The notes under the pieces: model-generated | The model's input: the letters and a program-made list of their open reading frames with translations, nothing else | What the model was told of the DNA's origin: nothing | Databases searched by the model: none | Shown here: positions 12,084-59,909 of the stretch, one piece after another | Numbering within the stretch: position 1 is the first letter of the stretch | Layout: each line of letters starts with the position of its first letter | Position numbers and translations under genes: made by a program | Virus record (IMG/VR): IMGVR_UViG_3300009151_000034 | Location: 32,001-96,000 of that record | Origin: a virus | Length of the DNA stretch: 64,000 nucleotides | Reading direction: 5' to 3' (one strand)

Positions 12084-12179
12084 TGGTAGTCCCTGACGGA
12101 TTCGAACCGCCAACCGCGCACCTATCTAGTGCATACGAAAGGTATAAGCTTTCCGCTCTACCGATTGAGCTAAGGGACC
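12084..12179 (-). tRNA. tRNA-Ile(TAT) with long variable arm
   Basis: Acceptor GGTCCCT/AGGGACT-ACCA, anticodon arm GAAAG-CTTATAC-CTTTC, ~25-nt variable region, T-loop TTCGAAT. Confidence 0.8.
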
Positions 12180-12361
12180 ATAAAATTTTAGTCTCGTCGT
12201 AAATTCCAAATATCACCGTAAAGGTTTTTAAGAATGGATTGCGCTTCAAAATAGTTATCATTTTCTGTGGTGATATAAACTGTCCTTTGTGAAGAAACGC
12301 CACGCCCTTCATCAACCGCAGTCCAGGCTTTCCATCGATACATAATAATCTCCAAAAAAGT

Positions 12362-12447
12362 TGGTGGGAAAGGTAGGATTCGAACCTACTCACCTATAAG
12401 GAACGAATTTACAGTCCGCCACCGCTCTCCAACTCAGCCGCTTTCCC
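12362..12447 (-). tRNA. tRNA-Tyr(GTA)
   Basis: GGGAAAG/CTTTCCC-ACCA, loop CTGTAAA, class II variable arm. Confidence 0.92.
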
Positions 12448-12493
12448 ATTAAACGTATTATAGACCATTCCTCAAACTATGTCAAGGATAATT

Positions 12494-12570
12494 TGGCGAT
12501 CTCTACTGGACTCGAACCAGTGACCCACAGCTTAGAAGGCTGTTGCTCTATCCATCTGAGCTAAGAGACC
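12494..12570 (-). tRNA. tRNA-Arg(TCT)
   Basis: GGTCTCT/AGAGATC-GCCA, ACAGC-CTTCTAA-GCTGT. Confidence 0.95.
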
Positions 12571-51903: not shown

Positions 51904-52533
51904 TTGATGTTTAACATGATATACAATAATTTATGTCGTAGCAGAAGTCAACTAAAAAATTTATGGGTTAAAGGATCAAATATTCATCGTCATCACATTA
52001 TACCAAAACATCAAGGTGGATTAGACGAAGAAACAAATTACACTTATCTTTCGGTGAGAGAACACATTATAGCCCATTATCTATTATGGAAAATTCATAA
52101 GAAACCAAACGATTTACGCGCTATGCATATGTTAGGTTGTAATTTAACTAGTGAACAAAGAAAAACGATTGGTATTTGGTGTAAAGATAATAATATAGGA
52201 ATATTTGACCCAACTAAAAATTTTAAATCAGAATGGTCAAAGCGTGGGGCTAAAACTCAAATGGATAAAAAGATCGGAATACATAATCCAGATAATTTCA
52301 AAAAAAATGCTTCTTTTGGAGGTAAAGCAGGAGCAAAAATTCAAATGGATAAAAAGATCGGAATACATAATCCAGATAATTTCAAAAAGAATTCCTCTCT
52401 TGGGGGTAAAGCACTTAAGAATATGGTTTGTGTAACAAATGGAAAACACAGGACAAGAATTCATCCTGAAAGATTAGAGGAATTCTTGTCAAATGGTTAT
52501 ATCAAAGGGTTTGTTCTTTTTACCGATATCTAA
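51904..52533 (+). mobile_element. Free-standing HNH homing endonuclease gene
   Basis: HRHHIIPKHQGG..N...L..REH..AH.LL; duplicated GAK.QMDKKIGIHNPDNFKKN; TATAAATA at 51871. Confidence 0.88.
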
Positions 52534-54574: not shown

Positions 54575-55682
54575 TTACATATAGTCCTCCAATGTAAGTT
54601 GTCTTTCTGCTTGCCAACCAATAACATCAAGAATTGAAGTAATTGGATCAAGGAAAGTCTTCTGGAACTGCATATCATAATCCACATACTTCTGCAAGTC
54701 AAATTCATCTGGTAGACTTTCAGGGACCGAAATAACCGTATCCTCAATGATATTAGGCATTCTGAGATAAGCAAACTTAATCTTATCATTTTCACCAATC
54801 AACGGATATTTGTTGCTCAGTTCTTCGTTATTTTTAATAAGATTGTTATATAACAGAGCGCCCTTCACATGGATTGGAGTCCCTTTGATGTATACTTCTC
54901 CGTCTACTTTGGAGGCATACTTATCAAGTCCCTTCACCCCACGAGGAAAAGCAATATCCTCGAAAGGAAGATTTCTGAAATTATCTTTGAATTCAGCAAT
55001 AAATGCTTGGGTAGTTTTTTCATCCTTATTCATAATAATTTCGAGTGCCTTCTTGATATTGACACGGGAAGCCTTTGGAGTTGAAGAACGAACCGATTCG
55101 ATACCAGAAACTTTTACTTGTGGTTCAGAAAACTGCACGCCTTCAATATTCCAGGCATTCAAAATATACATCTTCTTTCCTCGCCAAATACCTTTACTGG
55201 CAATCGTTTCGCGTTTCATAAACATCTTTTGCTTATATGCATTCATGTAAGACGCAAGTTCTTCATATGACTTGTTAATCATAGGTTGAATTTTTTGTTC
55301 ACAGAATTCATCAAGCATCTTGACAATTTGTAGTTCGTCAGTGATGCCAACCTTGTTCACTAGACCTTCCATATCAACATAGATCGAGTCCGTATCAGAT
55401 GCAATAAGGTAATCGAAATTTTTGGTCTTGAGAATTCGGTTAAGATATTCATTCATTTTATTTCCGATCCAACGAACGGAAAGTTGTCCTGACATTGTAA
55501 TGGCTTCAGCAAGATTGAAGTCAAACCAGCGGAACCAGACGTTACCAAGAGCACCATATGCTGAGTTAAAGTTGCACCTTTTTGGCTAGTTGCAAATTAT
55601 GATACTTTGAAACATCCCTTTCTACCTTTTTCTTGAGTTCAATCAATTCGCTGTCACTTAATTTGCTGTAATCGTCTAACAA
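54575..55682 (-). CDS. gp43: DNA polymerase B, C-terminal subunit (needs a +1 frameshift at 55571-55565)
   Basis: TTG start after GGAG RBS; MLDDYSK..QLAKKVQL* then +1 frame NSAYGALGN..AEAITMSGQ..SDTDS..KRE..KK.Y. Confidence 0.85.
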
Positions 55683-55744
55683 AACTTATTCTCCAAATAA
55701 CAAAGGTTTGATGTTTTCATCTATAAATAAAATTCCATATTTTT

Positions 55745-57223
55745 TTAGCTTTTAGAAATACCTCTTTTGTTTAGTTCATCATCAATCTTTTGAAGTTTTT
55801 TCTTGGCCTCTGTCATCTTCTCCTTATATTCTACACGGTCGTTATACATCTTTTCCATAAGAGCAGGCAAGAACCCTTGCTTATCCTTACGATACATTGT
55901 GCCGTTGGCAGCATAAGCATATTCGTCTTGAAGATTACCAAGACTACCTTCTAGCAATTCATCAAGACTAGGCCAACCATCTTCGGCTTTCTCAATAAAT
56001 GTTTCGGGTGAAATATTATATTGCATAATCAAATGTGGGTATAGGCTGTTCAAGTCAAACGAGACAACCCACTTGCTAAGGCCCAACCTGGGCTCCTTGA
56101 CATAACCACCAATAAGTTCTTGGTCGAAAGTATTGATCTTCATTCTTGGAACAACAATGCATCGATCCATCAGGTAATTGTGAATGATAATATCCCAAGG
56201 TCGAACCGTAGTAAAAGTGTCAGCATAGTTTACCTTGGCGTCATATGCGAAGGCGATGACCTGTTCGATAAACTTTAACTTTTCTTCAAGTAGATCAATG
56301 AGCGTAACGTCATGCACGTTGTAGTCAATGAACATTTCGAAGTTGCGCTGATACATATCATCAAGTGAAACATATCCTTCGGTTTTGTAATCAAGCTTTT
56401 TCTGACCTAAGACCTTCTCGGCAATATGATCTAGCTTATAGCTTTCTTCGTTACCAAAAGAAAACTTCTTATATAATGCATAATAATCAAGCACATTGAT
56501 ACCGGCAGGAACATACACAGTCATTTCCTTGCCGTGGATTTCAATTTTACGCTCGTTCAAAAATCCCCAAGGCGAAAGAAGATTTGCTTCTTTGTTACCA
56601 AGTATACGTTTGATACGATTTACTATATACGGAATATCAAAAAATTCTATGTTCCAACCAGTGATAATATCAGGAAGAAATCGACCTGACTGCCATACAC
56701 GGAGAAATTTGGTTAATAAATCATGTTCGTCTTTGCAATGAAGATATGTTACTTTATCTGACTTAGACTTGTATGGTTTAAGACCCAATACTACCTTTTC
56801 ACCACGACGACTAACCGTGATTGCCGTGATTTCTTTATCTGCCGTTTCGATATTAGGAAACCCACCAGAGGAATCTGTTTCGATATCGATGCTGATAATA
56901 TTGATCTTACCAACATCATAATGAATATCACCATGAAAATTATCATAGATATAAAGATACGCAAAGTTTTCAAGACCATAGATAGGCTTGCCTGAAACAT
57001 TATCAAAAATCTTAAGATGATCTTTGGCTTCTTTAATAGTATTGAATGGCATCTTGATCAGCGGAGTTCCATCCAAAAGACGAAATTCTGTCTGAGCATT
57101 CTTTGGTGCTAATTCGAAAAGATAGGGAGAATATGGGATTTTTTCAGCTACACGTTCGCCATTCTTATAACCACGAACATAAACCTTGTCACCTCTAGCA
57201 AAAACATTAGTATAAAAATCCAC
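55745..57223 (-). CDS. gp43: DNA polymerase B, N-terminal subunit (exonuclease plus motif A)
   Basis: DIET..GWN..FD..YKLD..YN..D..SFDLNSLYPH. Confidence 0.95.
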   Translation of the reverse strand: MDFYTNVFARGDKVYVRGYKNGERVAEKIPYSPYLFELAPKNAQTEFRLLDGTPLIKMPFNTIKEAKDHLKIFDNVSGKPIYGLENFAYLYIYDNFHGDIHYDVGKINIISIDIETDSSGGFPNIETADKEITAITVSRRGEKVVLGLKPYKSKSDKVTYLHCKDEHDLLTKFLRVWQSGRFLPDIITGWNIEFFDIPYIVNRIKRILGNKEANLLSPWGFLNERKIEIHGKEMTVYVPAGINVLDYYALYKKFSFGNEESYKLDHIAEKVLGQKKLDYKTEGYVSLDDMYQRNFEMFIDYNVHDVTLIDLLEEKLKFIEQVIAFAYDAKVNYADTFTTVRPWDIIIHNYLMDRCIVVPRMKINTFDQELIGGYVKEPRLGLSKWVVSFDLNSLYPHLIMQYNISPETFIEKAEDGWPSLDELLEGSLGNLQDEYAYAANGTMYRKDKQGFLPALMEKMYNDRVEYKEKMTEAKKKLQKIDDELNKRGISKS

Positions 57224-59671: not shown

Positions 59672-59742
59672 AGTTCCGTGCCGGAATCGAACCAGCCTAG
59701 AAGGATTTGCAGTCCTTCACATAACCAATCTGCCAACGGAAC
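59672..59742 (-). tRNA. tRNA-Cys(GCA), CCA not encoded
   Basis: GTTCCGT/ACGGAAC-T, AAGGA-CTGCAAA-TCCTT. Confidence 0.88.
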
Positions 59743-59747
59743 ATATT

Positions 59748-59822
59748 TGGTAGGGACGGATGGATTTGAACCACCGGCATCAAGTGTCAGAGACTTGCGT
59801 TCTACCGCTGAACTACATCCCT
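59748..59822 (-). tRNA. tRNA-Gln(CTG)
   Basis: AGGGATG/CGTCCCT-ACCA, CAAGT-CTCTGAC-ACTTG. Confidence 0.85.
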
Positions 59823-59835
59823 ATATTATAATATT

Positions 59836-59909
59836 TGGTAGCGATTGAAGGAATCGAACCCACATTAGCGGAGTCAAAGGCCGCCGTCCTACCGTTGAAC
59901 GAAATCGCC
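59836..59909 (-). tRNA. tRNA-Gln(TTG)
   Basis: GGCGATT/AATCGCT-ACCA, loop CTTTGAC; two stem mismatches. Confidence 0.8.

Follow-up and report, generated by a model that had tools for sequence, protein, structure and literature searches.

Organization of the gp43 locus

The window, i.e., the whole stretch of 64,000 nucleotides analyzed here, corresponds to bases 32001-96000 of an IMG/VR virus record of 149,097 bp, which has direct terminal repeats and is estimated to be a complete genome. The phage is T4-like and has a G+C content of 37%. The complete 149-kb genome has one polB locus only, and the C-terminal part of the polymerase encoded there shares at most ~56% identity with gp43 of cultured cyanophages. 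This gp43 gene lies on the minus strand and is split into two cistrons, 43A (492 aa) and 43B, whose features are collected in Table 1. The product of 43A carries a C-terminal extension that reads ...QKIDDELNKRGISKS*, and the equivalent 43A gene of relatives is matched by the Pfam families DNA_pol_B_exo1 and DNA_pol_B. The GGAG sequence in the spacer is located 8 nt ahead of TTG 55682, the start of 43B.

The second cistron does not form a single open frame, and its two parts, ORF1 and ORF2, were analyzed separately. ORF1 includes the segment DVSKYHNLQLAKKVQL, which is the second fingers helix, in which the catalytic Lys of motif B is found, and it ends ...YHNLQLAKKVQL, where a TAA is followed by a C residue. 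The +1 frame reads NSAYGALGNVWFRWF... from position 55567 and is closed by a stop at 54575. Every factual statement of a first-pass annotation holds: it had described a 43B cistron that starts at TTG 55682 and ends AAG GTG CAA CTT TAA C, with the polymerase continuing in the +1 frame, and this layout was confirmed on the minus strand. The same holds for its statement that the +1 frame has a TAG six codons ahead of the Asn codon and no start before NSAYG: ATG, GTG and TTG are absent from this interval, and the first Met of the frame is found 22 codons beyond the Asn codon, at 55495. When T55568 is omitted the two frames join as KKVQLNSAYG, and unsplit relatives have KKIQLNSAYG at this place, in keeping with the proposal that a slip like that of prfB restores motif B. 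The second K of KKVQL is aligned to K560 of RB69 gp43 (R-K560-LLINSLYG). Two further in-frame CTTT sequences are present in 43B. In the window 43A and the C-part lie in a shared frame, a coincidence that does not recur in L004.

Table 1. Features of the split gp43 locus of the window and of the related loci (Lnnn, contigs of relatives; WIN, the window)
Feature	Position or contigs	Strand	Content or extent
gp43A cistron, 492 aa, ends ...NKRGISKS*	55745..57223	-	N-terminal, exonuclease, palm motif A, first fingers helix
Inter-cistronic spacer, 62 nt	55683..55744	-	holds GGAG Shine-Dalgarno of 43B
43B ORF1, 0 frame, TTG start, 38 codons + TAA	55566..55682	-	N-terminal extension and second fingers helix
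43B ORF2, +1 frame, 330 codons + stop	54575..55567	-	NSAYGALGN (rest of motif B), palm motif C (DTDS), thumb
SD-like AAGGTG	55575..55580	-	3 nt upstream of the putative shift codon
Putative shift site CTT-T-AA-C	55565..55571	-	CUU 55571..55569, extra base T55568, UAA 55568..55566, 3' C 55565
Mobile cassette, ~250 nt	55550..55800	-	43A C-terminal extension, spacer, 43B N-terminal extension, diverged fingers/motif-B copy (HomR-like), frameshift site
Six frameshift lineages	WIN/L085/L090; L083 (=L004); L082/L084/L093; L089/L095; L123; L154/L166/L167
4-nt insert, GCG CTG GGT TAG YAA	L164:2488-2530; L165, L168, L169, L183-L187		at least 6 lineages
6-nt in-frame insert, GCN CTT TAG CTN GGN AAY	L170:2423-2470; L177, L178, L179/L180/L182, L181		at least 4 lineages
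Vsr/DUF559-like endonuclease, 263-267 aa	L004, L089
HNH endonuclease, 269-273 aa	L123, L154
SegE-like GIY-YIG endonuclease, 229-231 aa	L163, L165, L168-L170

Signals at the frame break

The frameshift elements of prfB are a CUU_U shift site, an adjacent stop that is followed by C, an internal Shine-Dalgarno (SD) sequence and a short ORF1 (PMC5009743, PMC10885494). At the window's site a CUU codon is found directly 5' of the in-frame stop (CUU_U), and a C directly 3' of it (TAA-C). The SD-like AAGGTG noticed in the first pass was confirmed 3 nt upstream of CTT, with a pairing register that differs from that of prfB. AGGUG is fully complementary to the 16S sequence CACCU, and AAGGUG has one mismatch, although this 16S sequence may not be that of the host. 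The string AGGTG-CAA-CTT is present and invariant and is built with minor codons (both GTG and AAG are minor in this phage genome); its pairing with the rRNA is putative. The GGTG within it arises via an Ile-to-Val change (ATT to GTG), which is confined to the lineages with the frameshift. The stop is not UGA but UAA, with CAA in its place in the L082 group, and the product is a DNA polymerase rather than release factor 2 (RF2).

The usage of these elements elsewhere in the genome was also considered. Among the 137 ORF ends of the genome, TAA-C is the rarest TAA context (4 of 137), and CTT is the last sense codon in one case only, though it is the commonest Leu codon in the genome. An SD core is found at 58% of crude starts in the phage vs 10% at random, and it is of the AAGGA/AGGAG type. 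This codon, stop-context and SD usage fits selection for a shifty stop plus an SD. When an RNA stimulator structure was sought, the minimum free energy at the site was no better than that of shuffled sequences (z -0.17), the consensus fold was weak, and covariation was not found. Among the 13 tRNAs encoded by the phage none reads CUU. These tRNAs, which lie at window positions 12084-12570 and 59672-59909 and in the rest of the genome, include Gln(CTG), Gln(TTG), Asn(GTT), Leu(CAA) and Ile(TAT). The tRNA-Asn would read AAC, the first +1-frame codon after a shift, and any relevance of this is speculative.

Conservation of the site among relatives

Relatives were sought in IMG/VR and in JGI/ENA metagenomes with a protein query and with degenerate DNA patterns, and truncated polymerase proteins of 301-325 aa were also looked up. 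The invariant 15-nt string AAAAAGGTGCAACTT plus one extra base was recovered from more than 15 independent contigs (JGI, ENA and Logan), which represent six diverged lineages. All six lineages have the codons AAA, AAG, GTG, CAA and CTT, then one extra base, and then AAC TC, so that the alignment of gp43 from close relatives, suggested in the first pass as a check on the CTT-stop-C and the SD, gave an invariant CTT and an invariant AAGGTG. The extra base is a T except in the L082 group, in which this T is changed to C. The C-parts of these lineages share 47-74% amino acid identity, and 49-65% of the codons for identical amino acids differ among them. When columns with the same degenerate residue in the six lineages were compared, the codon was invariant in 5 of 5 columns within the cassette vs 8 of 96 other columns (Fisher p=1.6e-5). 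Nearby codons vary, e.g., GCC/GCA for Ala, CTA/TTG/TTA/ATA at a Leu codon, TCA/TCT/TCG for Ser and GGT/GGG/GGC/GGA for Gly. Unsplit relatives have AAR AAR ATY CAR YTN at the same codons, with five different Leu codons and without GGTG, and none of the 71 unsplit loci has a frame break at the site. The recurrence of the same extra base in six lineages and in independent assemblies is far beyond what chance or error would give. The nucleotide invariance could partly stem from a constraint at the DNA level (nuclease target or immunity), and not from translation signals.

The residues on either side of the site are conserved, each in its own frame and with synonymous variation. This conservation at the protein level on the two sides means that both frames are translated, and hence that the transition between them must fall within the invariant 16 nt. 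To judge from the codons in this interval, only a shift after CUU would keep the K560 equivalent, the Gln and the Leu. In WIN, L083, L123 and L154 the +1 frame has no start codon from its TAG to NSAYG.

The L082 group (L082, L084 and L093, three contigs) has CTT CAA C and therefore no stop at the site; its 0 frame extends for 13 more codons (L082:7424-7574), and its +1 frame has an ATG 17 codons upstream. Of the CTT-TRA-C pattern that the first pass had suggested checking, the CTT and the 3' C held in the six lineages, but the stop is replaced by CAA in this group. Either the stop is dispensable, or the L082 lineage works otherwise. Re-pairing from CUU to UUC would be one Watson-Crick pair stronger than re-pairing to UUU, which may compensate for the lost stop. 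A hungry-codon account of the CAA variant was discarded, since CAA is the major Gln codon in the L082 lineage.

The frame break lies within a mobile cassette

The frameshift was found only in split polymerase genes. In relatives that have an ORF between 43A and 43B, this ORF encodes a homing endonuclease of one of three unrelated kinds (Table 1), as judged by PHROGs matches; the Pfam matches of these proteins were below threshold, save SegE_GIY-YIG for L170. The spacer of the window is ~88% identical in DNA to the 3'-terminal 60 nt of the gene for the 263-aa endonuclease of L004, and it contains a stub of 21 residues that corresponds to the last ~20 codons of the Vsr/DUF559-like ORF (KKYGILFIDENIKPLLFGE; KKYGILFI[DN]ENIKPLLFGE). 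When the L004 endonuclease was compared with the whole genome by tblastn, matches were obtained at this 21-aa remnant alone. As the stub is its sole trace in the genome, the window carries an endonuclease-deleted derivative of the element. Downstream of the spacer, 43B starts with the extension LLDDYSKLSDSELIELKKKVER, which is followed by the fingers helix segment, with ~75% DNA identity to the parental sequence, and by the extra T that creates the TAA.

The limits of the element were given by a filled and an empty site: in L085 (with cassette) and L003 (unsplit) the flanks are ~99-100% identical, and positions 660-909 of L085 replace ~123 nt of L003. WIN and L085 are 97-100% identical from ~55810 to 55545 and 70-80% identical elsewhere. 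The opposite pattern was observed with L163, which is 90-100% identical to WIN in the flanks and 60-75% identical across the cassette, i.e., WIN is a mosaic, with a backbone that is 93% identical. In both comparisons the right edge of the cassette falls at window positions 55550-55542, ~20 nt past the extra T, so that all the frameshift signals travel within the cassette. Furthermore, the sequences with the frameshift are scattered on the tree of the C-part, and supported branches force at least five changes. These sequence comparisons indicate that the ~250-nt cassette has moved between polymerase backbones. The feature is real, conserved and portable. That the site is shared with relatives, tied to the 43A/43B split and carried inside a mobile cassette is context that was absent from the first-pass annotation.

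Splits and inserts do not always occur together. In L163 (L163:2309-3200) the endonuclease is a GIY-YIG protein of 229 aa and 43B, at 366 aa, is unshifted, with no frameshift; its motif B carries an unusually heavy load of substitutions (KKTQLNGAYGSLANVHNRWF), which, in place of an insert, may make the target site immune. L173 likewise has a split and an endonuclease and no insert. As both relatives do without recoding, the insert is not obligatory for such elements. In L171 and in the cyanophages S-N03, S-CREM2 and ACG-2014f there is a split with neither endonuclease nor insert.

Two further observations concern gene breaks in this module. In L172 (L172:1-3601) an unshifted 366-aa 43B stands beside RNase H and small ORFs, apart from 43A, and the two cistrons are apparently unlinked. 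In the window, a 209-aa ORF on the plus strand (51904-52533) carries HNH-like motifs (HRHHIIPK...REHIIAHYLL) and has no Pfam match; it lies beside the gp41 helicase region, so that this replication module contains a second gene break associated with an endonuclease.

Other candidate recoding sites in motif B

Two other types of insert were found in relatives, both within 12 codons of the window's site. The 4-nt insert makes a second frame break 8 codons beyond the window's site, at which YGALG* closes the 0 frame and (V)SNEYF is read in the +1 frame. This site is always accompanied by a GIY-YIG endonuclease or its remnant, and a GTG of the +1 frame is conserved four codons ahead of the stop. 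Judging from the reading frames, the +1 frame could be entered here by a +1 shift or by a coupled restart. The 6-nt insert is in frame and occurs in polymerases split by GIY-YIG elements, in which the sequence ...YGAL-TAG-L-GN places matched Leu codons around the stop; variation is seen at the third base of CTN but not in CTT or TAG. Synthetic stop-hops share the CTT-stop-CTN arrangement, and a natural case is not known (PMC5009743). From its sequence, the 6-nt site is a candidate natural stop-hop, in which 9 nt would be read as one Leu.

Comparison with known systems

All the CUU-stop +1 cases in RECODE are prfB (PMC10885494). The window's site resembles prfB in its CUU before an in-frame stop that is followed by C, in the internal SD-like sequence 3 nt upstream, in a short ORF1 (38 codons here vs ~25) with the functional protein in the +1 frame, and in the maintenance of the signals across lineages. 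It differs in that the stop is UAA here vs UGA, with CAA in one lineage, in that the SD is AGGUG vs AGGGGG/GGAGG and in another register, and in that the product is not a release factor, so that there is no autoregulatory loop.

The closest analogue of the window's cassette is the T4 mobA/gene 60 system. The mobA element split T4 gene 39/60, according to Bonocora et al. 2011 as cited in PMC5009743, and the 50-nt bypass insert of T4 blocks MobA nicking of its carrier (PMC5009743; bioRxiv 10.1101/2022.08.31.505936). In both systems a free-standing homing endonuclease, here seen through the relatives and the remnant, splits an essential replication gene, and the order of elements is alike, namely a homing endonuclease gene, an N-terminal extension of ~20 aa, a diverged homologous region of ~15 aa and then a recoding insert (Manning & Atkins, bioRxiv 10.1101/2022.08.31.505936). 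In both, the downstream cistron is interrupted after ~40-46 codons by a stop-containing insert that calls for recoding, an SD-like element plays a part, the endonuclease has often disappeared from carriers that keep the split and the insert, and the whole unit moves horizontally. The differences are that the gene encodes a DNA polymerase here vs a topoisomerase, that a 1-nt insert with a putative +1 slip stands here vs a 50-nt hop between matched GGA codons with a hairpin and a nascent-peptide signal, that no hairpin is evident and no long bypass is found here, and that three unrelated endonuclease families occupy the site.

Split gp43 genes have been described in Aeromonas phages 25 and 44RR, in which the cut is in the fingers and the cistrons are separated either by a short spacer that is not translated or by a gene for a seg-like endonuclease (PMC2988022). 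The window shares with them a family-B polymerase in two adjacent cistrons cut in the fingers domain, but in phages 25 and 44RR and in the cyanophages S-N03, S-CREM2 and ACG-2014f 43B is a single open frame, with no frame break in motif B. No match to the locus or to the cassette was obtained among GenBank phages with megablast and blastn, and tblastn with the 38-aa ORF1 matched only unshifted split cyanophage polymerases. Literature searches turned up no account of frameshifting in the family-B polymerase of a phage.

Proposed mechanism and alternatives

We consider it quite probable that the site directs a programmed +1 ribosomal frameshift, which on the sequence evidence is its best reading. 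Translation would begin at TTG 55682, and 38 codons would be read before peptidyl-tRNA-Leu is placed on CUU in the P site, with a poorly terminating UAA-C in the A site. A fraction of the ribosomes would then slip +1, from CUU to UUU, a step that may be aided if the 16S anti-SD pairs with the AGGUG located 3 nt upstream. The shifted ribosomes would read AAC-UCA-GCA..., giving a 366-aa gp43B with an intact motif B (KKVQL-NSAYG) and with the junction peptide VQLNSAYGALGNVWFR, whereas the unshifted ribosomes would release a 38-aa peptide. The comparison of the frames strongly supports a +1 shift as the sole route to a product with an intact motif B.

The main rival to frameshifting is an independent restart, and this we regard as unlikely. 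ORF1 would be released as a 38-aa fingers peptide, the C-part would be started on its own, by termination-reinitiation or at a non-canonical start served by AAGGUG 7 nt upstream of AAC, and a three-piece polymerase would assemble. Family-B polymerases do tolerate splits at the fingers tip, as 43A/43B shows (PMC2988022), and an engineered Pfu polymerase was split by termination-reinitiation (PMC3061061). The distance from the SD-like element to AAC suits initiation, the relatives with the 4-nt insert have their in-frame GTG 4 codons ahead of the stop, and the L082 and L089 groups have upstream ATGs in the +1 frame. However, in the four lineages that have no start in this interval (those of WIN, L083, L123 and L154), ATT and CTG are absent as well as ATG, GTG and TTG, and a first start 22 codons downstream would delete the conserved NSAYGALGN...AEAIT, which is under amino acid selection. 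Furthermore, a split between the KxxxL and NSxYG parts of motif B would run through a single helix.

Frameshifting as such could also serve to sense release factors, with the output of the B subunit rising when termination is slow. The site is of the same type as prfB, any shifty stop is in principle sensitive to release-factor activity, and the first-pass annotation had suggested that the availability of release factors may gate the synthesis of the polymerase. Both RF1 and RF2 recognize UAA, whereas UGA is specific to RF2. A UAA site therefore allows no RF2-specific loop; moreover, the L082 lineage has no stop, the site is accessory, cassette-borne and horizontally acquired, and it is absent in the 71 unsplit relatives and in other split relatives, which replicate without it. 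The gating proposal is not supported, and we give a sensing role even less credence than an independent restart.

A correction at the RNA level (transcriptional slippage or editing) would make a ribosomal shift unnecessary, and the site, which has a T3 run and is preceded by an A5 run 6 nt upstream, might invite it. It is very improbable: known slippage tracts are much longer than these runs, the site of the L082 group is limited to TT, and the loss of one A would give AKRCNFNS, with the K560 equivalent destroyed. Finally, one surplus T in a run of T is typical of sequencing errors, but an assembly indel or an inactivated gene is effectively refuted by the same base in all those contigs and diverged lineages and by two frames that stay open and conserved over 330 codons in the only polB of a complete genome, so that artefact or decay is scarcely credible.

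Origin and implications of the extra base

By analogy with T4 mobA/gene 60, the extra base would have come with the endonuclease cassette, or would have been selected in it. It would most likely break a nuclease target in the highly conserved motif-B DNA, and thus possibly confers immunity to the nuclease; frameshifting would then be the cost of immunity, and not a way to sense release factors. As the extra base is part of an endonuclease-derived mobile cassette, the frameshift looks compensatory, and on this analogy it is probably corrective, i.e., it makes up for a cassette-borne indel. The three types of stop-containing insert and the one substitution cluster all lie inside ~40 nt of motif-B DNA, and this clustering, together with the substituted motif B of L163, is as expected if motif-B DNA is the endonuclease target. 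A broader reading would take the motif-B inserts as one family of endonuclease cassettes with three recodings (a 1-nt insert with a prfB-like +1 shift, a 4-nt insert with GGT-TAG-Y and a 6-nt insert with a CTT-TAG-CTN stop-hop), in which the inserts provide self-immunity; we put this forward tentatively, as an idea with somewhat less than even chances.

Gene callers truncate such polymerases to 301-325 aa, so that phage annotation and polymerase-based diversity surveys miscount them. If the ribosome shifts at this site, it would be the first CUU-stop +1 frameshift outside RF2 genes, and the first programmed frameshift needed for the catalytic core of a phage replicase. T4 gene 60 has long been regarded as a one-off. 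The window's cassette would be a second independent case of a selfish nuclease cassette that forces recoding on an essential gene, and it would come with natural variants to compare, namely a stop or a sense codon at the site, inserts of 1, 4 and 6 nt, and three nuclease families. Should the broader, cassette-family reading also be true, the example of T4 gene 60 would become a recurring evolutionary strategy, and the 6-nt site would be the first natural in-frame stop-hop.
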